The notes under the pieces were generated by a model. The model saw only the letters and a program-made list of their open reading frames with translations, was not told the origin of the DNA and did not search any database. DNA of 32,000 nucleotides, taken from the NCBI RefSeq assembly GCF_000237865.1, contig NC_017459.1, positions 120,001 to 152,000 of the forward strand, in the 5' to 3' direction. This document shows, piece after piece, positions 1-28,816 of the stretch. The DNA is from Haloquadratum walsbyi C23. Its GTDB lineage: Archaea > Halobacteriota > Halobacteria > Halobacteriales > Haloferacaceae. Every line of letters begins with the position of its first letter. Within the stretch, counting starts at the first letter, position 1. The position numbers and the translations under genes were made by a program.

Positions 1-3000
1 CGACATGAATTGCGTCGGGGCGCGACCTTGCATCTCTAAGGCTTGAGTGTCGTCACCAACGGTCCCGAAGCCGGTTGCTCCACCCGACGAGCCGCTTCCG
101 GTCGCAGCCGTCTGGTTGGTCGCGCCTTTGTCCCAGTAGGCGCCCGAAAGTTGCCCAGTATTGTTCCCGACGAGTCCGCCAACGGTGCTCCCGCCCTTGA
201 CGCGTCCGCTGGCGTACGACCGAGTTACATCTACATCCTCGGTCTCGCCGACGAGACCACCAACTTTGTCGCCCGATGTGGTGACATCACCGCGCGCGTA
301 CGAATCGGTAATAGACCCGTCATTATTCGTATCGCCGATGAGTCCACCAACGTAGTCGCCATCAGTGGAGACGTTGCCTCGTGCATACGATGTTTCGACA
401 CCATCGCCATCCTTGTAGTACCCAATCAGCCCACCGACCCGCTGTCCAGTTGCGTCAACGTCACCGGTGGCCGAGGCGTTTGTCAGGATGTGATCAGCTG
501 AATCGTGGTGAAGTTCGCCAAACAGTCCACCGACTAGGTTCCCGCCTCCGGGGTCACTGGCGTTGACATCACCGGTAGCAGAGACATCTGTCACGTTTCC
601 TGCGTTCTGGAACTCTCCGACGAGCCCGCCGGTATACGCATCTGTCCCCGTGTTCGTCGCGTTAACGACGCCCGAAGCATGAGCGTTAGAGACGGTGATC
701 GGGTTCCCGGAACTTGACTTCGCCTGACCGACCAATCCGCCCACGTACCCACCGGAGGTGCCGTTCACGCTCCCGCCTGCAGAGGCGTTGATCACGTCAG
801 CCTGCCCCCGGCCGAGGAGACCACCAATGTAGCTCGTCCCGGTGACAGCCCCGGAGGCGTTCACGTCGGTCACCGGCGTCGTACTCTGGTGATCACCGAT
901 GAGACCACCAGCGTACTGATCAGTCGCGGTGACGGTCCCGCTCGCACTGGCGTTGTTCACCGCGCCGTTACTCTCTCCGACCAGTCCACCGATGGACTGA
1001 CTGCCGTTTGCGGTCGCCGTTGTGGTCGCGTCAGTAACGACACCGCCACTATTGACGGTTCCAACGAGACCACCAATCCGATCGCTTCCGCGGACGGCTC
1101 CCGAGGCGGTGACGTTCTGGACCGTGTCGTTGTTGGCTCCGACGGCCACGCCGAGGTCGTTGACCCCGTCTATCGAGGCGTCCTCGACCGTTAGGTTCTG
1201 GATTGTGCCGTCGTTAGTTCCGGCTACCACGCCAAGTTCGTCGCTCCCGGTGACCGAGGCGTTCTGGATTGTCAGATTCTGGATCGCCCCGTTCGAGTCG
1301 AGCGCGCCGACGAGCCCAGCCGTGCTCGCTCCGCTTCGGTTGATCGACAGGTTCGAAATCGTGGTGTCGTTACCGTCAAGTGAGCCGGTGAATGGCGCAA
1401 TCGGCTCGAAGCCGCTGCCACCGTTCCACGAGGCGTTGCCCGTCGCCGACGTGTCGATATCTTCGGCGAGTCGGTAATTATCAGCACGCGCAGCACTGCT
1501 GTTGTCGATTGCTTGCAGATCTGCAAGCGAGTCGATCAGGTACGGATTGTCAGCGGTGCCGTTTCCGCTATACACCGCGGTCAATTCTTCGCCATCTTCG
1601 CGGACGTAAGTTCGTACCGCCCCATCGCTCACGGTGACCGTCGCGTTCGCCGTCGCGGTCGAATAGCCGACCACAGTAAATGTCGGGCTAAACGTCCCGG
1701 TATCCGATTCAGTGATCGAGAGTGTTGCGGTCCCCGTCTCGTTCGTCACGGCCGTAGCGTTCTCAAGGCTGGTGAGACCTCCGGTATCCTGAACGCCCAC
1801 GATGAGCCCCTCAGCCGTGCTGGTGCCAGCTGTCGTCACTGTGACCGAAACCGAGACCTGCTCGGACTGAATCGCGCTCGCGTTGGTAGCGGTGACCGTA
1901 TTGACTGTGCGAGGTGGCTGTTCGGTTCCAGTCGACTGCGCCTGCAAGACCGGATAGCCCCGTGTGACGTTCCACGTAGTCGTGTAGTGTAGCCCATCCA
2001 TGAGCTCAGTCGCCGCCCGACCCTGCATCTGCGGTGCCGGCGTGGTGTCACCGACAGATCCGTAGCCAGTTGCCCCGTCCGGCGTGCCGCTTCCTGTCGC
2101 ATCCGACTGGGCAGTCGCGCCTTTGTCCCAGTAAGACTCGGAGATCTGCCCTGAGTTATCACCGATGAGCCCGCCAAGACCACTGTTCCCCTCAACTCGG
2201 CCGCTCGCGTACACGCGTGCCGTGTCGCCGTTTGTCTGCCCGATGAGTCCGCCGACGGGTCCCGTCCCAGAGACATTACCCTGTGCGTATGAGTCCTGCA
2301 CTGTACCGAGCGTCCCTTCAGTGCCCCCAATCAGCCCACCGGTTGGCCCAGCCGCATCCGCGTTGACATCACCTGTCGCGGAGGCGTTTGCCACAATGTT
2401 TGCCCCCGATTCGTGGTCAATTACCCCGATGAGTCCGCCAACATGCTCACCATTAAAACCAGTACTAGCGGATACATTGACTTGACCACTGGCGGAGACG
2501 TTCGTCACGTTCTTTGCGTTTCGAATTTCGCCAATAAGTCCGCCGACGTACCCGCGACCGCTGCCGACTGCCGCGGTGACATCACCGCTTGCGTCCGCAT
2601 CAGAGATACTAACGGGACTGGTCTGTATGGCACCAACCAGTCCACCGGCGCCCTGGTTTCTGGTCGACACGTTACCTGATGCCGAGACGTTTGCAATTGT
2701 CGCTACCTGGCTTGGGTCGTGCTTGCCGATCAGTCCACCGACGTTACTACCAGTACTATTCACGTCCCCAGTTGCTGACGAACGTCGGATGATGCTGGCG
2801 TCCGCCGATCCGAGTAATCCACCAACACTCTGGCCAGTCGCAGAGACGTTGCCTCGTGCATTCGAGTCCTCGACTGTACCGCCACCACTGTATGTCCCGA
2901 TTAATCCGCCGACTTGACCGTTCGTGTCAGTAGCAACATCGCCCGTCGCAGAGGCATTTGCAACGATGCGTGATGCCGATTCGTGCTCAAAGCTACCGAT

Positions 3001-6000
3001 GAGTCCGCCAACACGTCCATTGACGCCTTGTTTTCCGGCGATAGAGGCATTCACCTGACCAGTGGCGGAGACGTTTGTCACGTTCTTTGCGTTTTGAATC
3101 TCACCGATGAGTCCACCGGTGAAAGCATTGTTACCGCTGAGATCCGATGTCGTAACATTACCATCAGCACGCGCGTTCAAGATAGTGACAGGAGAGCCGG
3201 AAATCGAACTGCCAACCAGTCCACCAACGCGCACGCCCTTACTGGTCGAAACATCACCCGACGCCGAGACGTTTGCAATTGTCGCTACCTGAGTTGGGTC
3301 GTGCTCACCGATGAGTCCACCGACGTTAGATCCGGTAGTACCGTTCACGCGCCCGCTCGCCGAGGAATCGGTCACGTTAGCCTGTGCTCGACCAATCAGC
3401 CCACCGGTGCTCTCTGTCCCGGTGACGGCCCCGGAGGCACTCACGTCGGTTACCGGAGTCGAACTCTGGTGATCGCCAATGAGCCCACCAGCGTACTGCC
3501 CGGTTGCAGTGACAGTTCCGCTCGCACTGGCATTGTTCACCGCCCCGCTACTCTGTCCGACTAACCCGCCAATGGACTTGCTCCCGCTTGTAGTCGCGGC
3601 TGCAGTTGAGTCGGTTAAGACGCCACCAGAGTTGACCGTCCCAACGAGGCCCCCGATCCGGTCATTTCCGATAACCGTCCCTGAGGCAGTGACGTCCTGG
3701 ACGGTACCAGTGTTGATTCCGACTGTCACACCGACGTCGTTGTTCCCGGTGACAGAGGCGTTCTCGATGGTCAGGTTCTGGATCGTTCCGTCGCTGGTCC
3801 CGGCTATCACACCGAGGTCGTCGCTCCCGGTGACAGAGGCGTTCTGGATTGTCAGATTCTGGATTACCCCGCTGGAATCGAGCGTGCCGACGAGCCCAGC
3901 CGTACTCGTGTCGCTCCGATTGACAGATAGATTCGAGATTGTGTGCCCGTCTCCGTCGAGCGTACCATCGAATGTTCCGCTCTCACCCGCAATCGGTTCG
4001 AAGCCGTTGCCACTGTTCCAGGAGGCGTTGTTCGTCGCCGACGTGTCGATATCCTCGGCGAGTCGGTACTGTTCACCACGCGTGGTCGCGTTGATGTTGA
4101 TCGCTTGGAGATCCGCGAGCGAGTCGAGGAGGTACGGGCTCGTGTCCGTCCCGTTACCGGGATACGTCGCCGTTAGCTCGGTGTCGTCATCACGAGTGTA
4201 CGTCCGCACTGTGCCCGGCTCCACCTCGACCGTCGCGGTCGTCGAGACGGTCGATTCTCCCGCTGCACCGAACGTCGGCTCGAACGTCCCGATTGCTGAT
4301 TCGGCGAAGGTGAACGTTGCAGTGCCGTTCGCGTCGGTCACGGCCCCGGCGTCCGCGAGTTCGGTGAGGCCGTCCGCGTTGTCGACACGGATCACATAGC
4401 CTGCATCAGCAGGGGTACCGTCGACCGTCGCGGTGACGTCGATCGTCGTCTGCTCGGTCTGCAGTGCTGTCGTGTCGGAGGCCTCCATCGAGTCGATGGG
4501 CGAAAGCGAGGGCCCGGTCGTGTTCGACTCCCGTTGGAAGACCGGATACGTACTCGTGAGCTTCCACGGCGACGTGTAGTTCAACGGCTTCATGAACGTC
4601 GTCGGCGCTCGGCCCTGCATCTCCAAGGCGCGGGTGTCGCCGACTGTCCCGAAGCCAGTGGCTCCAGCCGACGAGCCGCTTCCGGTTGCACCCGTCTGGT
4701 TGGTCGCGCCCTTGTCCCAGTAGGCGTCCGAGAGTGCTCCGTTGTTGTTCCCGACGAGTCCGCCGACAGTGCTCCCGCCCTCGACGCGTCCGCTGGCGTA
4801 CACGCGCTTCACATCTCCGCTCGCTTCACCGACGAGGCCACCAACGTAGTCTCCCGAGCTATTGACATCACCGCGCGCGTACGAATCGGTGATAGAACCG
4901 CCATTCGTATCGCCGATGAGTCCACCAACGTAGTCACCATCAGTGGAGACGTCGCCTCGTGCATACGAGGTTTCGACTCTATCGCCATTCTGGTGGTAGC
5001 CGATTAGCCCGCCGACTCGCTGTCCCGTCGCGTCAACGTTACCGGTGGCCGAAGCATTCGTCAGGATGTAGTTTGCCGAATCATGGTGAAGTTCGCCGGC
5101 TAGTCCGCCGACTCGGCGACCGTTTCCGGAGGCACTGGAGATATTAACATTGCCGGTGGCAGAGACATTTGTCACGTCGGTCGCGTGTCGAAGCCTGCCA
5201 AAGAGTCCCCCGGCGTACGCGTACGTACCAGTGTTTGTTGTGACGACATCACCTGTGGCGTGTACATCAGAGACAGTAATCTGGTTAACAGACTCCGAAG
5301 TACCGACCAGTCCACCGACTTTCTGACCACTGGTCGATACGTTACCCGACGCTGAGACGTTCGTGATCGTCGCCGCTTGATTATGGCGGTGATCGCCGAT
5401 CAGTCCGCCAACCCGGTCGCCAGACGTACTATTCACCTCGCCGCTGGCGGTCGACTCTCGGATGTTGCTGGCGTCCGTCTGTCCGAGTAACCCGCCGATA
5501 TGATCTCCCCCACCCGACACGGTGCCGGTCGCGGTGGCATTTCTCACCACCTCACCGTTCTGGTGATACCCGATGAGCCCACCGACTCGCTGTCCTGTCG
5601 CGTCAACGTCACCAGTGGCCGAAGCGTTCGTCAGGATGTAGTTTGCCGAATCATGGTGAAGTTCGCCAAACAGTCCGCCGACTCGGCGACCGTAGGAATT
5701 ATCTTGAGCGGAAACGTCACCGGTGGCGGAGACGTTTGTCACGTCGACGGCGTGTCGAAGTCGACCGAAGAGTCCCCCGGCGTACGAGTTTGTACCAGTC
5801 TCCGTTGCATTGATCTCACCCGTAGCGTGGGCATCAGAGACGGTGATCTGGTTGCCGGACTCCGAAGCACCGACCAGTCCACCGACTTTCTGACCCCCGG
5901 CCGACACGTTACCTGACGCTGAGACGCTCTCGATTGTCGCTGCCTGATTAGGGCGGTGTTCGCCGATCAGTCCGCCAACGTACCCGCCGGATGTGCTCGT

Positions 6001-9000
6001 CACGGTCCCACTAGCTGAGGAGTTGCTCACGCTCGCACTTACACGTCCGAACAGTCCGCCTGTGTAGTCGCCGTCACTGGCGACGTCACCAATCGCAGAG
6101 ACGTTTTCAATTGTCTCACCGTTCGTATGATCGCCAATCAGTCCACCCGCGTAACCAGCGCCACCCGACACATCGCCAGTCGCGGTGGCGTCTCTCACCA
6201 CCTCACCGTTCTGGTGGTAGCCGATGAGCCCGCCGACTCGCCGTCCCGTCGCGTCAACATCACCGGTGGCCGAGGCGTTCGTCAGGATGTAATTAGCTGA
6301 ATCGTGGTGGAGTTGGCCAAACAGTCCGCCGACTTGGCGACCATAGGAGTTGTCTTGAGCCGAAACGTCACCGGTGGCGGAGACGTTTGTCACGTCGACA
6401 GCGTGTCGAAGTCGACCGAAGAGTCCCCCGACGTACGAGTTCGTGCCGGTCTCTGTCGCGTTGACGTCACCCGTAGCGTGGGCGTTAGAGATGGTAATCC
6501 GGTCGGTAGTCTCTGAGGTGCCGACCAGCCCACCGACCTTCTGGCCACTGGTTGATACGTTGCCTGACGCCGAGACGCTCTTGATTGTCGCCGCCTGATT
6601 GGGGCGGTGATCGCCGATCAGTCCACCAACCTTGTTGCCAGACGTGCTATTCACGTCACCGCTGGCGGACGACTCTCGGATGACGCTAGCGTCCGTCTCT
6701 CCGAGTAATCCGCCGACCCTCTTTCCCACAGTTGATACGTCGCCCGTTGCAGTAACGTTATTGATCGTCCTCCCTTTGTCGTGATACCCGATCAGCCCGC
6801 CGACGCGCTGTCCAGTTGTGTCAACATCGCCGCTTGCTGACGCGTTTGCAACGATATAATTAGCTTGATCGTGGTGGAGTTCGCCAAACAGTCCGCCAAC
6901 TCGGCGACCGTTTCCGGGCGTACTGGAAGCGTTGACATCACCGGTAGCAGAGACGTCTGTCACGTCGGTCGCGTGTCGAAGCTCGCCAAAGAGCCCCCCG
7001 GCGTACGCGTACGTGCCAGTGTTTGTTGTGACGACATCACCTGTGGCGTGTACATCAGAGACAGTAATCTGGTTGCCAGACTCCGAGCTGCCGACCAATC
7101 CACCGACCCGGTTGCCGCTGCCCGACACGTTACCCGATGCCGAGACGTTCCTGATCGTCGCCGCCTGATTGGGATTGTGATTGCCGATCAATCCACCAAC
7201 CCGGTCGCCGGACGTGCTCGTCACGTCGCCGCTGGCGGAGGCGTTGATGACGCCGGTCCGCGCCCGCCCGACGAGGCCGCCAGTGTAGCTGGTTCCGGTG
7301 ACAGCCCCCGAGGCGTTCACGTCGGTCACCGGCGTCGAACTCTGGTGATCACCGATGAGCCCACCGGCGTACTGCCCGCTCGCGGTGACAGTCACGCTCG
7401 CGCTGACGTTGTTCACAGTCCCTCCAGACGTGACAGTCCCAACGACGCCACCGATTTCCCGGCGGCCCTCGACCGTCCCTGATACGGTGACGTTCTGGAC
7501 AGTCCCAGCGCTTTCTCCGACCACCGCACCGATGTGTCTGTCACCGACGACCGAGACGTTCGTGAGAGCGAGGTTCCGAACCACACCACCCGATTCCAGT
7601 GTCCCGACGAACCCGAGCTCGTTTTTTGTAGTCGCACTCTGATCGATCGACAGGTTCGATATCGTGTGGCCGCCGCCGTCGAGCGAGCCACTAAATGCGG
7701 CACCGCTGTCGATGCCAAACAGCCCACCGATCGGCGCGAACCCTTTCCCGTGTTCGCTGGGCACGTTCCACGACCGCGTGGCCGAGGCGTCGAGGTCGGA
7801 GCCCAGCTGATAGTTGTATCCGCGCGTGGTGGCGTTTTTGTTGATCGCCTGTAGATCGACGAGCGAGTCGATGATGTACGGGTCCACCGTCGACCCGTTG
7901 CCGGCAAACGTGCCGGTCTGGATGGTACCGTTGACCTCGTGATCCCACGACGCCTGACTCCCGGCAATCGTCGTTGCGCTGGCGTTGTTCCCCAGCGAGT
8001 CTGTCATCGACACGATTACCTCCCGAGACAGCGCCGGGTTCGCCCCAACAGTCACATTCCCGGTGAAGTTCCCGTTGCCGGTGTCTGTCAGCGTGACGGA
8101 ATCACTGTCGGCATCCAGTGCGGAGACGTCGGCCGTGGCAGTGGTGATTGAGCCGGCCTCGGACACGGTCGCGTTGATATCGAACGTATCTCCCTCCGAC
8201 AGCGGCGCGGTGCCACCGGTCCGTGTGATCGTCACCGAATCGATACTTGGGGGTGAAGTGTCCACTGCGAGCGTGTTCGACCGGGTGCCGGTCACCTGCG
8301 TGCTGGCGTTCCAGGCGAGATAGCCGACAGTCGTAGGTGCGTGCCCATCTTTATCAATCGCTGCATCCTCTTCAACCCGAACGTCGACACTGTCTTTCGT
8401 GCGATCATCATAACGGAGATAGGCTGGTTGACCTCCACTGCTATCTTGCAGATCAGCAATAAATCCGGCAGGATGCGGGTCGTCGAAAGTGATTTTCTTA
8501 AGCTGGTTATTGACCCCGCTGATCTCGTCAGCAGTGAAGTTCGTCTCACCCAGCACTGAGTCGCCCTGTTCAATAGCGATGTACCCTATCGTCTCGGTCC
8601 CGTGTGCCGTCCCGTCGTTTCCGCTCGCTTCGTCTTCTTGAATAAACACGTCCAGCCCGTTCGAGTCGATGTTTTGATTTCGCGTGCTCACCGCGTCGGG
8701 ATCGTTGAATGTCTGCGGTTGCGTAAATCCGATTGGCGTGCCGGATAATGACTGGTTAAACGCGACTGAATTGATCGTGCCTTCGCTCAGAGTTGTCGTC
8801 CCAGCGTCAACTTTTGTCCCGTCGTCGAGTTCTGTCGTGCCGGCCTCGGCTACGATGTATGAGACGTTCGCGGTCGGGTGGCCGTTGTCTTGGTTCGACC
8901 ACTCCTCGACGCGAATCTCGAAGGAATCCGACTGGACGTTCCGAATACGGGTGTGGCCGCGCTTCTCCGTGGCCACGTCTTCGCTATCTTTTTTAGATGA

Positions 9001-14067: not shown

Positions 14068-16616
14068 TGACTCTTCAGTTTCCACTGGTAGCATATTTTA
14101 GCATATTACTGACTGTAGGGTTACTCTGTACGGGATACGCGCTTCTTCGGAGGTGCCGTCAATCAGGCGATTACTTGACATTTCGATTTGTCGGCATAAT
14201 CATTGGAGTATCGCTCTGGTGGTTAGTCATGTCGACAGTAAAATTCACAGCGACAAGTCTTGAATTGAAAATTCTATCTTACCGACTCTCGATGGCAGCG
14301 TGGATTGGGCTTCCAATCTCAACATGTATTTTTTCTTTTATCGGAATATATCATCGCGATGCGTCCAGCACCCAACTACACCGTGGCGTCATTGCATTTC
14401 TCGCTGGACTTCTCGCTTTCATTATGCTGATTCCACAGTCAGCCCTGTTTACGACACCACATCTCTTATCAGTTGGTGAGTTTGTCACGCTTGAACATGG
14501 AGTTAGTGTCACAACGGCCGTCATTACCGGTATTGCATGGACAATAACTCTTTTTGGAATTGCGATTGCTCTCTCCCGTGTAGTTCATAAAAAATATGTC
14601 CCTCCGGTTGTCGCACTTGCTGCTGTAATCCCATCGTTACCAGGGATAATAGGCGTGCTCAAACTGTTCGAAATATACCCTGCTGGAGGGGCTGGATTCA
14701 ATCTAGCCCCTCATCTCGCCGGTCTCGCTACTATCCTTTTTGCTGCTGTGACGCATCGAAAAGGGCTCACGACGATTATTTTGGACTCGCGACACGCCGC
14801 CATTGAGAATGCGACTGAGGGATATGTGCTTGCTGATGAGACTGAGATAATTCGTGATATGAATACGGAAGCGAAACGATTGGTCGATGCCACGGTTGGC
14901 GACCAACTTCCCTCATGGCTTGCCGAGTCATCCGCTGAAACCGCCGAAGGTGTGAATCGTACCACTCCAACGGGAAAGGAGATTGATCTGCAACAACACA
15001 CGGTCGGCAGCCATAGAGCCACAAACAAAGTGTTTCTTCTCCGTGATCGAACCGAACAATTGACCCGGATGCGCAAACTTGAATCTCGTGACCGTCTGAT
15101 TGCTGACCTCCCAGTCGGCGTTTTTCGAATTCAACGTGGGACATCACCACGTTTCGTATATATGAATCAAGCGTTTGCTGAGTTATTTAATATCAGCGAC
15201 GTGGATCAAATTGACAAGCACGCGGTATCAGATGTATTCGGAGCGCAGCAACCACAACTGATCGGTAATCAATCGAATTACTCAACTCCAGAGAACCCAG
15301 AGACAACTGAACAGTTATTTTCGCCACCGGGCACCGATTCGTTTTGGGGGCTTGTCTCCACGTATCCCTCGTCGACTCAGGATCCTGATATGATTGAGGG
15401 TGTCATTGTTGATATCACTGCTGAAAAACAAGCGGAGGCTCTCCTTACAGAGGAACTTGATAATATATCGCATGACCTAGAGTTAACTGAGCAACTCTGG
15501 GAACTCTCAGTTCGTCTTGAGGGGTTCGACGCCTTCGCTCAGGAGGCACTTTCATTACTAACCGATATTGATACTATTGAGTGCGCTGAAGTTGTTCGGT
15601 CAGGACGGGTATGCTGCGGTGAACCGGAGACTATTGTTGCAAATGGGACCACCCATATTCCGGATACAGCAGTGTCGAACGCGATAGAACACGCATATAC
15701 TGAGGAGAACAAGCGTACTGAGACACTTACTATAGATGATGAGAGATATACGCTCATTACGACGCCGATCATGACAGAACACGTTGCTGACTCCGCCCTC
15801 ATGATATTGAGTGCGTCGCCACCAGATGATCGCGTTGAGCATCTGGTGACAGACACCGCTGAAGCATTGGCGTATAAACGTGCAGTCAATTACCGCGAGA
15901 AGTATACTGATGAGGATAAAATGACCGAACTCCGCATTGCTAATACAGATACGGACAAACCACATCCACTGAGCCAACTTCTCACTACTGCCGACGTGGA
16001 TGTTGATATAGAATCATCGCCGCTTACGTTCACTAATGTACGCGCTGAGGGTCAGATAACATGGTATCTCTTACGGGCGGATCAAGCGGTATGTAACGCA
16101 GTGACTGCAGCAGCAACGGCACACGACTCAATCAAAGCAACGACACCGATATCGATAAACGATGATGAGAATCAATCTCGGTGTCAAATCGGCATTGAGA
16201 CGGGTGATATTCATCGTTCTCTCAATACCGAGGGGGTCACAGTGGTTACTATCTCTGCTAATGCGCGTGGAACAGAATTTCTCTTACACCTTCCAACTGA
16301 TCTCAAGGTTGCGGACATCATTGACATCTTCCGAACACGGTTTCCAGCAATGCATCTCCGGTCACGACAAACAATTGAGCGTGAGTCAGTGGACACGCAG
16401 GTATTCACCGAATTAGATGAATATCAGCGACAGGCTATGGAGGCTGCAACACGAATGGGATTTTTCTCACGCCCACAAGGTGCAACAGCGGGGGATGTCG
16501 CAAACACATTAGATATCGGTCGAACAACATTCACACGTCGTCTTAAAAATGCGCAGACAACAGTATTCAATAAGCTGCTTGATTCACAGACTGATACTGA
16601 ACCGGCGGATGACTGA
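14067..16616 (+). CDS. Membrane-anchored Bat-family transcription regulator: about 7 TM helices at the N-terminus, a PAS domain, a GAF-like region and a C-terminal HTH_10 domain.
   Basis: The first ~230 aa contain seven hydrophobic segments. The PAS-like block is LIADLPVGVFRIQRGTSPRFVYMNQAFAELFNIS...IEGVIVDITAEKQAE. The C-terminus QRQAMEAATRMGFFSRPQGATAGDVANTLDIGRTTFTRRLKNAQTTVFNKLL matches the bacterio-opsin-activator HTH pattern. Confidence 0.85.
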   Translation: MTLQFPLVAYFSILLTVGLLCTGYALLRRCRQSGDYLTFRFVGIIIGVSLWWLVMSTVKFTATSLELKILSYRLSMAAWIGLPISTCIFSFIGIYHRDASSTQLHRGVIAFLAGLLAFIMLIPQSALFTTPHLLSVGEFVTLEHGVSVTTAVITGIAWTITLFGIAIALSRVVHKKYVPPVVALAAVIPSLPGIIGVLKLFEIYPAGGAGFNLAPHLAGLATILFAAVTHRKGLTTIILDSRHAAIENATEGYVLADETEIIRDMNTEAKRLVDATVGDQLPSWLAESSAETAEGVNRTTPTGKEIDLQQHTVGSHRATNKVFLLRDRTEQLTRMRKLESRDRLIADLPVGVFRIQRGTSPRFVYMNQAFAELFNISDVDQIDKHAVSDVFGAQQPQLIGNQSNYSTPENPETTEQLFSPPGTDSFWGLVSTYPSSTQDPDMIEGVIVDITAEKQAEALLTEELDNISHDLELTEQLWELSVRLEGFDAFAQEALSLLTDIDTIECAEVVRSGRVCCGEPETIVANGTTHIPDTAVSNAIEHAYTEENKRTETLTIDDERYTLITTPIMTEHVADSALMILSASPPDDRVEHLVTDTAEALAYKRAVNYREKYTDEDKMTELRIANTDTDKPHPLSQLLTTADVDVDIESSPLTFTNVRAEGQITWYLLRADQAVCNAVTAAATAHDSIKATTPISINDDENQSRCQIGIETGDIHRSLNTEGVTVVTISANARGTEFLLHLPTDLKVADIIDIFRTRFPAMHLRSRQTIERESVDTQVFTELDEYQRQAMEAATRMGFFSRPQGATAGDVANTLDIGRTTFTRRLKNAQTTVFNKLLDSQTDTEPADD

Positions 16617-16667: not shown

Positions 16668-18074
16668 CTATACAGACTCGATCTTTTCTGTCGCCGAACG
16701 AATAAGCCCATCAATAATCTCAGGTGTTGTCGGGTGATATGCCCGATCTGGGAGTTCTCGAACATCGAGTCCTAATTCAACAGCAACTTGCATTGTTTTT
16801 GCCATCGGGTCAGCATGGTAATGTAATCCTTGCCATCCAAGCACCGTACCATCAACATCAACAACTAACCGAGCAAGCCCATCTGGCACGTTTTTTGATT
16901 TAAATACTCCATCGCTTGCCGCCTCTCGGGTCACAGTAATAAAGTCATGATTGCTTGCTTCTGCGGATTCAACCGAGTGACCAACGCGAGCGTATGGCAG
17001 AACGCCAAGTCCGCTGAATACAACATGATGATGAATATTCTGATACGATGTGAGTTCGTCGCCCGCAGCATGTGCACGAATATTTTCCGCAGCGGTGACA
17101 CCTTGCTCCTTGGCAACATGGAGGATTGGCTCTCGTCCATTCGCGTCACCAGCAACGAAAATTCGGTCACTCCCACGGGCTTGCATCGTCGCTGGAACCC
17201 ATCCAGGTTCAGGATTCAATGAAGTCTGTTCAAGACCCAGATTGTCAACTGCAGGTCGACGCCCGGTAAATCCAAATAACTGGTCTGCCTCGATTGTCTC
17301 TTCGTGTCCATTTCGCCTGACCGACATTCTCACTCCGCCGTCTGCTGTCGGTTCAACGCGGCGCTCGTCAGTTTCAGTGAGTACTGTGATATCAAATGCA
17401 TCACGGTAATACGACAGCAGTGCATCACCAAAGGCTGGGTCAGCTTCATCAAGTGGTCGAGAATCATGCTCGATTACGGTGAGATCCATCTCCCCTGCCT
17501 CAGTAAGATATGGGACCATTTCCATACCGACGTATCCAAAGCCCATGACGATTCCTGAATCTTCGAATGCGGTCGCATCAAGCACATCCGCACTTGTCAT
17601 CATTGAGACGTCCTCCATACCAGGAAGCGAGGGCTCATTTACTGTCGATCCAGTCGCGATGACAATATAATCTGGCTCAATGACCGTCTCACCGACTGAG
17701 AGTGTTCGATCATCGATGAACTCTGCTGTTTCGGTACGAAATTGCACGTTCTCCTTTTCAGCAAGCTTCTCGACACCTGCTCGTCTATGTGCTGCGAAAT
17801 TTAACACACGCTCATTCTTTGTCTCAACAACTGCATCGAGATCAACATCCGGTATCGGTCCATCTATCCGGTTGTCATGTCGAGCCGCAAAGCGATGTTC
17901 AGCAGCTGAGAGTACCTCCTTTGATGGCATACATCCTCGAAGAATACAGAGCCCGCCCCCAGGTTCGCCGTCATCGATCATTGTCACTTCAACTTCTGGC
18001 ATCTCGGCAAGTCGCTGTGCAGTAGCAATCCCAGCGCTACCATACGCGCCGATAACGGCGACATGTGTAGACAT
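16668..18074 (-). CDS. Class I FAD-dependent pyridine nucleotide-disulfide oxidoreductase (dihydrolipoamide dehydrogenase / mercuric reductase-like).
   Basis: The N-terminus has the dinucleotide fold VAVIGAYGSAGIA. The redox-active disulfide motif is GGLCILRGCMPSK. The C-terminal dimerisation motif is AYHPTTPE. The product is 468 aa. Confidence 0.85.
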   Translation of the reverse strand: MSTHVAVIGAYGSAGIATAQRLAEMPEVEVTMIDDGEPGGGLCILRGCMPSKEVLSAAEHRFAARHDNRIDGPIPDVDLDAVVETKNERVLNFAAHRRAGVEKLAEKENVQFRTETAEFIDDRTLSVGETVIEPDYIVIATGSTVNEPSLPGMEDVSMMTSADVLDATAFEDSGIVMGFGYVGMEMVPYLTEAGEMDLTVIEHDSRPLDEADPAFGDALLSYYRDAFDITVLTETDERRVEPTADGGVRMSVRRNGHEETIEADQLFGFTGRRPAVDNLGLEQTSLNPEPGWVPATMQARGSDRIFVAGDANGREPILHVAKEQGVTAAENIRAHAAGDELTSYQNIHHHVVFSGLGVLPYARVGHSVESAEASNHDFITVTREAASDGVFKSKNVPDGLARLVVDVDGTVLGWQGLHYHADPMAKTMQVAVELGLDVRELPDRAYHPTTPEIIDGLIRSATEKIESV

Positions 18075-20795: not shown

Positions 20796-21776
20796 TCAAT
20801 ATTGATCAGTCGTTGATGATGGCATTGGATTATCCTTTTCCTGGTTGGTCGTATTGAGCATATGAATACGCTCTTTCACAGTTTCTGAAATAATCTCCTC
20901 AGGCGGAAGCCCCTGGTCGATTGTTCCTGTTCCTGTTCCTGTTCTTGTTCCTGTATACGAGTGAGATAATTCTGACGCGTACTCAAGCACTGCTTGCGTA
21001 GCCGTCTTACCAACGGCGGATGCACCGACTGCAACAGCAAGTGCAAAGATATCAGCTTCAAGATTTCCATCATATGTAGTATTCTCATCGTCTTTTATCC
21101 GCTGGAGCGTTTGGTCCTGACCAAAGGCACGGACAACGCCCACCGCTCGACCTGCCGCGTCAGTCCGAGCAAGCAAAGCAAATCCACGTGAGACGAATAC
21201 ATCCGCAGCAAGAACCTCAAGATCGGCGTCAATATCTTTTTTTATCCCCGTCTTTGCTGTTGTTGACCCGACCCATGGTTCTGTGTCAGCGAGCGTTCGG
21301 GTGAGGCGTAATCCTTCATATATTAATTGTACGCCCGCTGCACGGTCAACTAACGATAATCGATGCACATTCTCAGCTGCGTCTGTCTGTTGAGTGAGAC
21401 GGCGATGACCGGATGACTCATCCGCTGATTCCTTGTTCAGATTACCGCTTGATTCGGCATTTGGGTCATGAGAATGCACTTCGCTGTCGTTGACCCCGGA
21501 TTCAGGAATATGTCCATGAGTCCCTCCAGATGCATTCCCAGCTCCATCGCTGATTGGTGGTCCATCTCGGTCCTGGTCTTTACCCTTGTCTTGCATATCA
21601 TCAGTGTCGCCACTCTCATCAGAACTGCTGAGTGCACGAGCGCTCGCGAGTGTAAGCACCGCGGGTGTCATCGCCGTGTCTGTGAGGCGAGTGTGAAGCG
21701 CCGTGCGGAGAGGACCAGGTTCAATATCCATAACTGCCTCCCGGGCGGCGTCACGGACCCGCACGGCATCGTCCAT
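20796..21776 (-). CDS. Hypothetical acidic protein with a long low-complexity insert and a (Gly-Thr)n tract.
   Basis: The start is ATG and the product is 326 aa. The composition is halophile-like and acidic. The flanks look conserved (AGVQLIYEGLRLTRTLADTEPW, VLAADVFVSRGFALLARTD) around a D/E/S/G-rich insert. I recognise no family. Confidence 0.7.
   Translation of the reverse strand: MDDAVRVRDAAREAVMDIEPGPLRTALHTRLTDTAMTPAVLTLASARALSSSDESGDTDDMQDKGKDQDRDGPPISDGAGNASGGTHGHIPESGVNDSEVHSHDPNAESSGNLNKESADESSGHRRLTQQTDAAENVHRLSLVDRAAGVQLIYEGLRLTRTLADTEPWVGSTTAKTGIKKDIDADLEVLAADVFVSRGFALLARTDAAGRAVGVVRAFGQDQTLQRIKDDENTTYDGNLEADIFALAVAVGASAVGKTATQAVLEYASELSHSYTGTRTGTGTGTIDQGLPPEEIISETVKERIHMLNTTNQEKDNPMPSSTTDQY
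20922..20954 (-). repeat. Hexanucleotide microsatellite (TGTTCC)n inside the CDS, encoding TGTRTGTGTGT.
   Basis: Reading directly gives TGTTCC x3, TGTTCT, TGTTCC, TGT. Confidence 0.9.
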
Positions 21777-26989: not shown

Positions 26990-28816
26990 CTATCCACTGA
27001 GCACCGTTGGACCGAACACTAACAGTAGCAATGATAAAAGCATAATTATTCCAACACTTGTTGTGATTGTTCGAACCAATCGGCGCTTTCCGCTCGCAGG
27101 GAGCGGTAATCGTGAAACAACCGCCTCAGCACTTGTTCGAAGAATGCGTCCTCCATCAAGCGGATGCCCAGGAATGAAATTAAATATTCCTAACTGGAGA
27201 TTAATCCACGCCGTCCAAAAGGCAATATTTGCTATGAGGAACACTCCACTCCCAATCGGCTCGAGTGGACCAGTAATTGCATAGAAATTATGTACTGCTC
27301 CAGTAAATCCCGGGAAGTTTGGAATGCCAAGAACAACGGATGCAAGCGGCAATACAAGCGATACATAGACGGCTCCAAGTGGTGAATCAGCAATTGTCCC
27401 ACTCAGCCCAATCGCCCCAGGACCACCCTCTCCGCCAAGCAATTCAAGATATGTTCCGGCAGGATATGATTGCGCACCAAAGTCTGTTAACAATAATCCG
27501 CTTGTCCCTGGGAATATATTCACACCTAAGAAACCACTCCCATCTTGTGGATTCTCGCCAAGACGGACTGAATATTCTTTTCGTTCACCTGATACGACAG
27601 CCTCAACCATGACTTCCTCACCCGGTTGTGTTGTATCTAAAACTGCTGTTAGTTCATTCGAAGATACAACACGCTGACCATCGATTGCAGTCACAATTAC
27701 GCCGGGGTTGCTTGGAACACCAGCCTGAGCAAGCGGTCCATCAGACGCAACTCGTGTCAGATATGCTCCAGCAGGAATTGTGGTCGTTCCGCGCGTTGTG
27801 GTCAATTCAATGAATCGGTCTGTCCCAACAGCATTGGCAAATCCTGCTTGTGTATAGACTGCGGTGCCATTCACTGTCTCGACGCCAATTGGGTCGCCCT
27901 CGGCGTCGACATTAATATCCGCAGGATTCCCACCAACCGATCCAGCAACAATCAATTCTCGCTCAACGGTGAGCGTCTGCGACTCCCGCTTCGCTGCACT
28001 TGTCCCATCATTAATCTTGACGGTGATCTCTCGATTACTTCTCTCCGATAAAATATTATTGAGTTCGCTTTCATTACTAATTGGCGTTCCAGCCACGGTT
28101 GTAATCCGATCACCTTGCTCGATTCCCGCTGTTGCTGCCGGTGATTCATCATACGCCCCAGAAACAGCCAGTCCCGGTGCAACAGTGATGCTTCCGATTA
28201 TCGGACCGAATAAAAGCACAAACGCAATGATCGTGATTGCGAAATTGTTTGTGACCCCTGCTGCGAACATCCGTGTTCGTCCTCCTCGACTTGCGAATCG
28301 CTCGCTCTCTTCATCAGGTTCGACAAACGCACCAAGCGGTATAATCGTTAAGAGGAATACCCCCATTGATTCAATCTCAATCCCTTCAACTCGACAAAGT
28401 ATTCCATGACCGCCCTCATGAACAACCAGCCCAACAAGCAGTCCAAAAATAATCTCTGGAGCAACGGATAATGGGAGAAAATCATTCACACCTGGAATGA
28501 CGAGGAAGTTCTCCGGCTGATTTACCGCCGATGGTGCCGGTGGGTTCTGAAGAATTGAGATTCCCTGAATAAGTAAGAACGCAAACATTCCAACCATAAT
28601 CACAAGTGCTGTGCCGACACCGAAGTTCGTCCATGCTCGCCAGAATCGCTTTGGCTGCGCAATCCACTCGATGAATTCTCGCCCACGCTGGGTATGAATC
28701 GTTGTAAACGGTCCTTGCACCTGAACGAACTTTGGCAGCAGTCCACGCTGAGAGAGAAAGAATGTGCCTGCTGAGTATGCAGCAAGACCAACAAGCACCC
28801 ATAGAAGCGTGTTCAT
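26990..28816 (-). CDS. Site-2 protease family (peptidase M50) intramembrane metalloprotease with PDZ-like inserts.
   Basis: The HExxH motif is VVHEGGHGI. The second M50 motif is FNFIPGHPLDGGR. There are multiple TM segments and PDZ-like blocks (GIEQGDRITTVAGTPI, VIVTAIDGQRV). Confidence 0.85.
   Translation of the reverse strand: MNTLLWVLVGLAAYSAGTFFLSQRGLLPKFVQVQGPFTTIHTQRGREFIEWIAQPKRFWRAWTNFGVGTALVIMVGMFAFLLIQGISILQNPPAPSAVNQPENFLVIPGVNDFLPLSVAPEIIFGLLVGLVVHEGGHGILCRVEGIEIESMGVFLLTIIPLGAFVEPDEESERFASRGGRTRMFAAGVTNNFAITIIAFVLLFGPIIGSITVAPGLAVSGAYDESPAATAGIEQGDRITTVAGTPISNESELNNILSERSNREITVKINDGTSAAKRESQTLTVERELIVAGSVGGNPADINVDAEGDPIGVETVNGTAVYTQAGFANAVGTDRFIELTTTRGTTTIPAGAYLTRVASDGPLAQAGVPSNPGVIVTAIDGQRVVSSNELTAVLDTTQPGEEVMVEAVVSGERKEYSVRLGENPQDGSGFLGVNIFPGTSGLLLTDFGAQSYPAGTYLELLGGEGGPGAIGLSGTIADSPLGAVYVSLVLPLASVVLGIPNFPGFTGAVHNFYAITGPLEPIGSGVFLIANIAFWTAWINLQLGIFNFIPGHPLDGGRILRTSAEAVVSRLPLPASGKRRLVRTITTSVGIIMLLSLLLLVFGPTVLSG

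Follow-up and report, generated by a model that had tools for sequence, protein, structure and literature searches.

The halomucin locus of Haloquadratum walsbyi C23 and a possible pairing of its 'Bat'-annotated membrane regulator with halomucin-family exoproteins

The 32,000-nt stretch of DNA analyzed here, referred to below as the window, is the halomucin locus of the Haloquadratum walsbyi C23 chromosome (positions 120,001-152,000), already published as the halomucin/capC-capB locus. Three elements lie side by side in it: the giant halomucin gene hmuI (hmu), the capCC-capB pair, and a membrane-bound regulator annotated 'Bat'. Proteins of 388, 410, 849 and 468 aa are exact matches, in that order, to the C23 proteins CCC39080 ('CapB domain protein'), CCC39081 (CapC domain protein), CCC39083 ('Bat (homolog to bacterioopsin activator)') and CCC39084. 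Gene content, order and orientation are the same as in H. walsbyi HBSQ001 (hmu1-capB-capC-bat; HQ1081A-HQ1084A), and the window is the C23 ortholog of that locus. Halomucin is an emblematic proposed adaptation of the most abundant organism in salt-saturated brines. Bolhuis et al. 2006 (PMC1544339) drew hmu1 together with capC and capB in their Fig. 1 and proposed that halomucin and a poly-gamma-glutamate (PGA) capsule act as a water shield, and the papers on the HBSQ001 locus (Bolhuis 2006; Dyall-Smith 2011) had already covered the high-GC hmu gene, its signal peptide, its GLUG repeats and the adjoining capC and capB. The core of the finding is already known, and the nature of the locus itself stays unchanged by the present analysis. 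The modest new part is a regulatory lead on the 'Bat' neighbor: in the published work on the locus we found neither a tie between this regulator and hmu nor a named high-GC relative of hmu.

A preliminary description of this DNA had placed the giant gene on the same strand as the capCC-capB pair (its pgs genes), with the regulator divergent from that pair; ORF calls and Pfam/NCBIfam matches confirmed these positions, with the first three genes on the minus strand and the regulator on the plus strand. The window holds the 5' part of hmuI (1..10278, minus strand), codons 1-3426 of 7,837, in a stop-free frame that spans 1-10290 and has its ATG at 10278; the gene continues past the left window end. 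Dyall-Smith 2011 placed the variable part of hmuI (DV1) at C23 108,448-129,921, with strain-common sequence reaching 119 codons into the gene, and by coordinate arithmetic our ATG agrees exactly with that end at 129,921. HmuI measures 7,837 aa in C23 against 9,159 aa in HBSQ001, and the C23 protein is without the C-type lectin domain pair.

Halomucin begins with a Sec-type signal peptide (aa 1-30, MSQTAKPIFAVVVALSVLISGVAFIESVSAQQ; 10189..10278), read from the sequence and published as a Sec signal. A DUF642/choice-of-anchor-C carbohydrate-binding-like head follows (aa 38-191; 9706..10167), as the preliminary description had proposed: PF04862 scores 60 bits against a cutoff of 27 in a full-length match (model positions 1-156 of 157), and the region also matches CBM_4_9 (28.6 bits) and TIGR04362 (E = 8e-29). 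Next come two or three bacterial Ig-like modules (aa 197-400; 9079..9690; Big_13 33.6 bits, Big_7 weak), and residues 281-400 share 90% aa identity with a metagenome contig, L037. The triple repeat beyond them (aa 400-665; 8284..9081) had been called an H-lectin-like head, an assignment that we could not uphold. H_lectin (PF09458) stayed at 13.8-14.9 bits, short of its cutoff of 24 (E = 0.03-0.06), on the first of the three repeats only and over part of the model (positions 32-65 of 67); scanning each repeat separately, and the L037 homolog, did not recover it, and a single-sequence AlphaFold2 (AF2) model of the triple repeat was unusable (pLDDT 36.6).

From aa ~790 to the window end (aa 3426; 1..7911) hmu encodes GLUG super-repeats, with Ig-like linkers near aa 1900-2040 and 2760-2900. 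A Pfam Glug score of 306 bits, together with the signal peptide, bears out a giant secreted GLUG exoprotein, of which only the first 3,426 codons fall inside the window, and three super-repeat starts share 64-70% identity. The further claim that this is a beta-helix protein has qualitative support only. The AF2 model of aa 2040-2460 is all-beta (pLDDT 74.7, pTM 0.76) and its top Foldseek matches are all right-handed beta-helix proteins, but these matches are weak (E>=5e-3, TM-score <=0.33); the GLUG-repeat body probably forms a beta-helix. GLUG repeats, and with the same weakness of structural match a predicted all-beta repetitive fold, are held in common with other GLUG exoproteins and beta-solenoid adhesins (the IgA1 protease N-terminal region, Lactobacillus reuteri SRRP and PfbA), but halomucin is several times longer and rich in sequons (120 N-X-S/T in 3,426 aa). 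Pfam scans found no anchoring or transpeptidase domain in the halomucin head.

Immediately before hmu, a small open reading frame (ORF120, 10275-10637, minus strand) ends with a stop codon that overlaps the hmu ATG (ATGA). Similar small ORFs whose stop overlaps the exoprotein ATG occur at L030:5221-5559, L031:3931-4269, L033:3102-3440 and L040:10481-10819, and the regular size and the ATGA overlap across three of the lineages defined below (A, B and D) are odd. We considered these 100-123-aa ORFs (mostly 112 aa) as a conserved third gene and rejected them as probably spurious, because they fall into groups that are not homologous to one another, are not acidic and, in the case of ORF120, owe half their length to a 283-bp segment (window 10453-10735) that precedes capCC in a sister lineage.

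The gene upstream of hmu is capB (11053..12219, minus strand; 388 aa), encoding a PgsB-like amide ligase of the Mur-ligase family. CapB matches TIGR04012 (PgsB) at E = 1e-25, but with 90.3 bits against an equivalog cutoff of 222.7 and with only residues 30-198, the N-terminal half, aligned. Its P-loop GxRGKS (G47-R49-G50-K51-S52) does not vary among 12 homologs, the closest matches of known structure are Mur ligases and FolC only (E>=8e-6), and hydropathy gave no transmembrane (TM) segment. The adjoining capCC gene (12222..13454, minus strand; 410 aa) encodes a fused tandem CapC/PgsC membrane protein with ~10-12 hydrophobic segments. PF14102 matches it in two stretches (104.5 bits, cutoff 27), the two halves are 31% identical (E = 9e-12), and the NCBIfam PgsC equivalog scores 24 bits against a cutoff of 96. 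Of the PGA-synthase labels in the preliminary description, that of CapC holds at the family level and that of CapB is a partial match below the equivalog cutoff; its remark that PgsA and CapD are missing agrees with our finding no PgsA or CapD/GGT homolog among the window ORFs of >=100 aa that were scanned. As in Bacillus PgsBCA(E) and B. anthracis CapBCADE, a Mur-ligase-type amide ligase and a CapC-family membrane protein stand side by side. Unlike in those systems, the capC gene comes first here, CapC is a tandem duplication fused into one protein, CapB lacks a predicted N-terminal TM segment, PgsA, PgsE and CapD are absent, and the scores lie below the NCBIfam equivalog cutoffs.

We used a profile of CapB homologs to collect 26 loci, with 10-kb flanks, from haloarchaeal assemblies taken at one genome per GTDB species. 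In 25 of them fused capCC immediately precedes capB, and the exception has a scaffold gap at that point. Among the carriers are Halorubrum, Halolamina, Halorarius, Halobellus, Halobacterium, Haloparvum, Natronorubrum, Natronolimnohabitans, Halostagnicola, Halapricum and Natrialba. Within 10 kb of capB, 0/26 loci had a regulator homolog, and none outside Haloquadratum had a halomucin homolog; the halomucin-related matches near capB were a remnant in the Haloquadratum metagenome-assembled genome (MAG) J07HQW1 and one weak Ig-like match in J07HQX50. Clustering of neighboring ORFs gave no other recurrent partner besides one Natrialbaceae gene. Judged by these neighborhoods, capCC-capB is a self-contained two-gene module, PgsA-less and widespread in Halobacteria, and the expectation that the three-part arrangement would be conserved in related genomes fails.

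By analogy with Bacillus PgsBC, capCC-capB most likely polymerizes glutamate into a gamma-linked polyamide. In B. subtilis, pgsBC alone yields 26 g/L of L-rich PGA (d/l ratio 5/95; PMC6029982), and because these two genes suffice there, the absent PgsA needs no substitute; the idea that halomucin acts in place of PgsA/CapD is unsupported. The haloarchaeon Natrialba aegyptiaca makes 100% L-PGA, a Natrialba genome carries capCC-capB (L025), and the pair is a good candidate for the synthase that makes polyglutamate in Natrialba. The Natrialbaceae gene mentioned above, of ~393 aa and without a Pfam match, sits right after capB (L013:11131-12312; also L014, L017, L023 and L025) and may be a third synthase component in that clade. 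Two Lake Tyrrell Haloquadratum MAGs, J07HQW1 (L001/L003) and J07HQX50 (L002/L004), hold two capB copies each, 90% and 74% identical to that of the window in the first and 81% and 74% in the second. CapCC adjoins three of these four copies, the fourth (L001) having a scaffold gap there; the window holds one capCC-capB pair.

On the other side of capCC, an AT-rich spacer (13455..14066) leads to the regulator gene (14067..16616, plus strand), the HQ1084A ortholog, which encodes a membrane-bound one-component regulator of 849 aa. The protein matches PF15915 (BAT, 46.2 bits), PF04967 (HTH_10, 39.7 bits) and PAS_8 (33.8 bits), and HisKA_7TM falls just under its cutoff (26.4 against 28.6 bits). Hydropathy gives six clear hydrophobic segments and a weaker seventh, in keeping with the 7-TM/PAS/HTH_10 protein of the preliminary description. 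No model for a GAF domain matched at E<=0.01. ToxR and CadC are membrane-bound one-component regulators that hold a DNA-binding domain and a sensor in one polypeptide and act on a nearby envelope-related gene. The window regulator likewise joins a sensor and a predicted DNA-binding domain near an envelope-related gene, a likeness of working only: ToxR and CadC have unrelated folds, belong to another domain of life, and have one TM segment against seven here. The spacer contains two small ORFs, placed by HBSQ001 coordinates and Tarasov 2011: HQ1083B-like ('zinc finger', 13651-13836, plus strand) and HQ1083C/'Bp'-like ('basic protein', 13903-14067, plus strand). We found no CxxC-type zinc-finger ORF in this spacer, only a His/Cys cluster, H-x2-C-x4-H-x2-C-x2-H, ending the HQ1083B-like ORF. 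We rejected the length and AT-richness of the window's two spacers as a special feature, as both are ordinary for this genome (published mean intergenic spacing 289 bp, coding density 76%). No similarity was found between the two, and an Rfam scan of window 9800-14300 gave no known RNA family.

The regulator has few relatives. A search of 1.84 billion representative proteins gave only 16 matches at E<=1e-30, with ~5 full-length representatives at 50% clustering, and tblastn against PLSDB plasmids gave none. The contigs of these homologs, together with a regulator-centered scan of metagenome contigs, resolved into four lineages. Lineage A comprises H. walsbyi, including two environmental contigs (L034, L035) in which all three elements are adjacent, and a sister whose regulator is 81% identical (L027, L049). 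Lineage B regulators are 83-100% identical to one another on contigs of 56-62% GC, lineage C contigs have 67% GC, and lineage D is a MAG. Regulators of lineage A are 45% identical to those of B, C and D, which are 41-58% identical among themselves. Flanking housekeeping proteins assign L040 (lineage B) and L041 (lineage C) to Halorubrum. A DUF7114 gene lies 2-5 kb from the regulator in both lineage A (window 20796-21776, minus strand) and lineage B (L040:5192-5857), and this residual synteny supports the orthology of the regulators.

Wherever a lineage B-D contig extends 0.6 kb or more past the regulator (13/13), a co-directional gene for a halomucin-related signal-peptide protein follows downstream. 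These exoproteins carry GLUG, DUF642, Cadherin_3, Lectin_C or Big domains and reach 90% protein identity and 78-84% DNA identity to segments of halomucin. The L032 exoprotein has a signal peptide, DUF642 and Ig-like modules, with 70% identity to halomucin residues 1-282. That of L037 (>=2,034 aa) combines Cadherin_3, Big_7, DUF642, two C-type lectin domains and GLUG repeats, which is the architecture of HBSQ001 halomucin, including the lectin pair lost in C23; it is 61-90% identical to halomucin residues 281-1141. Five others (L031, L033, L039, L040 and L046) begin with the halomucin super-repeat head module at 29-47% identity, and L033, L039 and L040 also have GLUG-repeat matches or Pfam Glug motifs. 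Neither capCC nor capB was found on the lineage B-D regulator contigs. Lineage A has capCC-capB between the regulator gene and a divergently oriented exoprotein gene, whereas in B-D regulator and exoprotein genes are co-directional. That the pairing outlasts a changed order and orientation, a usual sign of functional linkage, suggests such a link between regulator and exoprotein.

A DNA element accompanies this pairing. Upstream of the exoprotein genes of lineages A-D we could align a block of ~50 nt centered on TGnn(C/T)ATATGnnCA. Its palindrome-framed core reads TGGGCATATGGCCA in lineage A (window 10684..10697, minus strand, 407-419 nt upstream of the hmu ATG), GTGCATATGTCCAC and GGCCATATGTTCAA in the two parts of lineage B (B1 and B2), GAGCATATGCTCAC in lineage C and GAACATATGTTCGG in lineage D. 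In the 32-kb window TGNNYATATGNNCA occurs once, against 0.16 expected; each of the 17 regulator loci whose sequence takes in the intergenic region likewise has a single site, and the 26 capB loci have no site. A narrower pattern, GNNCATATGNNC, matched once in 454 kb of capB loci. The distance from the site to the exoprotein ATG downstream of it is 279-411 nt throughout, and the capCC-regulator spacer (13455-14066) contains no copy of the palindrome block. In lineage A the block stays with hmu and not with the 3' end of the regulator gene, so it belongs to the upstream region of the target gene. The block may be the operator of the regulator, a core promoter, or both, and it presumably differs from the upstream activating sequence of bop. 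The segment of the window that holds it (10453..10735, minus strand), a candidate promoter or leader of hmu, has 91% DNA identity to L027:208-490 and L049:892-1174 of the sister lineage, where this 283-bp segment sits between the regulator and capCC, immediately before capCC and oriented toward it. Both sister contigs end inside capCC, and the segment there is a second copy or a relocation. Its position is the only evidence tying the capCC-capB pair to the regulator and hmu.

The composition of hmu sets it apart from its surroundings. Window G+C is 57-63% from position 1 to ~9,800 and 40-51% beyond; hmu has a GC of 0.60 and a third-codon-position GC (GC3) of 0.67, against a GC of 0.44-0.48 in neighboring genes and a GC3 of 0.35-0.43 in ten other window genes, including capB, capCC and the regulator. 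The break falls within the gene: over nt 1-540, which encode the signal peptide and DUF642, GC3 is 0.46-0.47 and near native composition, after which it jumps to 0.73-0.84 and then runs at 0.53-0.76 per kb. Lineage B-D regulators have a GC3 of 0.61-0.73, and their exoprotein genes mostly have a similar, mosaic GC3. L037 and L032 match two stretches of hmu (nt 97-852 and 845-2648) at 78-84% DNA identity, yet the protein identity of the adjoining regulators is only 45%. This pattern of sequence suggests that most of hmu, from about codon 190 on, was probably acquired from higher-GC haloarchaea, or exchanged with them, through recombination at a resident regulator-exoprotein cassette, a direction of transfer that we infer. 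The gene is variable between strains and genomovars (Dyall-Smith 2011; Tully 2015). The DUF642 module has a low GC3 (0.39-0.47) both in H. walsbyi (window 9706-10167) and inside high-GC3 lineage B genes (0.39-0.40; L032:3629-4170, L037 near 4650-5110). This suggests a transfer of DUF642 as a single module, perhaps out of a low-GC donor, and modules of the halomucin family seem to have moved in both directions.

Expression data come from one HBSQ001 batch culture, in light and dark, and from two field samples for hmu only. In the culture, transcripts per million (TPM) were 43.9 for the regulator, 3.3 for hmu, 7.8 for capB, 33.5 for capC, 0.41 and 0 for the small upstream ORFs HQ1083B and HQ1083C, and 5.9 for HQ1085A, the gene following the regulator. 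This places the regulator at almost twice the average and hmu very low (Bolhuis et al. 2017); light and dark did not differ significantly, and in the field samples hmu stood at 0.6-0.7x the average. High regulator with low hmu expression could fit a repressor or a missing signal, yet it does not count as support, and these data neither support nor refute co-regulation.

We favor, with moderate confidence, a reading in which the locus is two independent conserved pairs that are interleaved in Haloquadratum, not one three-part system, and in which the regulator controls the exoprotein. The first pair would consist of the membrane-embedded regulator and the giant halomucin-family secreted protein: with its TM/PAS part the regulator would detect a signal at the membrane or envelope, and it would control transcription of the exoprotein gene through the ~50-nt block. 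The second pair, capCC-capB, would polymerize glutamate into what is putatively PGA, and in Haloquadratum it sits between the regulator and hmu. The preliminary description had put all three elements under the adjacent membrane sensor. The pairing of regulator and exoprotein in four lineages and their shared block argue for control of the exoprotein, but control of a three-part unit finds no counterpart in conservation; co-regulation of both pairs within the genus Haloquadratum is plausible, if unproven. As to the hydrated coat of halomucin and PGA that had been proposed, it matches the standing published hypothesis (Bolhuis 2006, PMC1544339) and is neither new nor proven.

We also put forward a more far-reaching version, which we consider possible without holding it probable. 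Here regulator, block and halomucin-family exoprotein would form an undescribed cassette present in at least four haloarchaeal lineages; the gene called 'bat' would be misnamed and would encode an envelope-signal-responsive controller of halomucin, possibly of capCC-capB too; and the body of hmu would have been imported from or exchanged with Halorubrum-like organisms. Should the pairing be functional, it would supply a concrete regulator and a 14-nt site, call into question the use of 'bat' in models of bacteriorhodopsin regulation in Haloquadratum, and account for the unusual composition of hmu by an exchange of modules with higher-GC neighbors in the same brines.

Several points weigh against these readings. 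The relation between the regulator and hmu is one that we infer, and the conserved block might be a core promoter alone, with no regulator bound to it. In the HBSQ001 culture the regulator was high while hmu and capB were low. Lineage B gives most of the contigs, many of them near-duplicates, and the independent evidence amounts to four lineages, not 13 contigs. The neighbors of the distant homologs L050-L052 (22-24% identity) are mixed, with a divergent Tat-secreted repeat protein at one, a convergent surface protein at another and nothing obvious at the third. The high GC3 of hmu could come from codon selection in a repetitive gene. Finally, given the sub-equivalog scores of CapB and CapC, their polymer could differ from PGA and be, for example, polyglutamine-like. 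The divergent neighbor in the first of the distant loci (L050:2-961, minus strand) combines a Tat signal with adhesin-like GGxN repeats beside a full-length regulator homolog of 24% identity, and it hints that the link to secreted repeat proteins may reach further.

Halobacterium salinarum Bat is a soluble protein (PAS-GAF-HTH) and offers the best of the competing accounts, one that we nevertheless judge unlikely: the regulator would be a true Bat that acts with HQ1083B and HQ1083C on bop and retinal genes, its adjacency to capC and hmu being coincidental. The C-terminal architecture of PAS, BAT and HTH_10 is common to the window regulator and the Hbt. salinarum Bat/Brz/Brb system, small ORFs are annotated upstream in both, and the curated name is Bat. 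Tarasov et al. 2011 and Bolhuis et al. 2017 treat HQ1084A as bat, with small zinc-finger and basic-protein ORFs upstream, and its roughly twofold-average expression runs alongside a highly expressed bopI. The window regulator differs in its added N-terminal domain of 6-7 TM segments and in its company: in four lineages the neighbors are halomucin-family exoprotein genes, and no bop, other opsin, brp, crt or retinal gene was found in the window or among the annotated neighbors of regulator homologs. HQ1083B and HQ1083C, moreover, are essentially untranscribed in HBSQ001, and homologs of these small ORFs were not noticed upstream of the lineage B-D regulators, where an unrelated 65-aa ORF occurs instead.

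Somewhat less likely still, there may be no functional coupling at all, the regulator being a stable landmark beside a recombination hot spot and the block a core promoter of the exoprotein gene. The rapid turnover of the exoprotein would fit: lineage B regulators are 83-94% identical, yet the adjoining exoprotein has at least three N-terminal architectures, its GC3 is mosaic, and hmu itself varies as described above. A mere landmark sits poorly with a pairing that persists in four lineages through changes of order and orientation, that joins family members and is not tied to a fixed chromosomal position (the flanking genes differ between lineages), and with a block that is palindrome-framed, as expected of a dimeric helix-turn-helix site. 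Least probable is the single dedicated extracellular-matrix system of the preliminary description, in which halomucin organizes or anchors PGA and replaces PgsA/CapD: adjacency of the three elements in C23, L034 and L035, the published shield hypothesis (PMC1544339) and the hmu-type block before capCC in the sister lineage speak for it, but all 26 capB loci lack a regulator neighbor and none outside Haloquadratum has halomucin, the regulator-exoprotein pair occurs without capCC-capB in lineages B-D, PgsA is dispensable for PGA synthesis (PMC6029982) and is not encoded nearby in any of the haloarchaeal loci, leaving nothing to replace, the halomucin head has no anchoring or transpeptidase domain, and some Haloquadratum genomes lack hmu or hold a degraded copy (Tully 2015).

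Two further genes near the regulator deserve mention. About 10 kb from it, a site-2 protease gene with Peptidase_M50 and PDZ domains lies at 26990-28816 (minus strand). Site-2 proteases release membrane-tethered regulators in bacteria; the gene here is probably a housekeeping gene. Next to the regulator, at 16668-18074 (minus strand), is a gene that UniProt names bis-gamma-glutamylcystine reductase (a pyridine nucleotide-disulfide oxidoreductase). In the sister lineage this reductase is 98% identical and the regulator 81%, so the regulator is evolving much faster than its neighbor.

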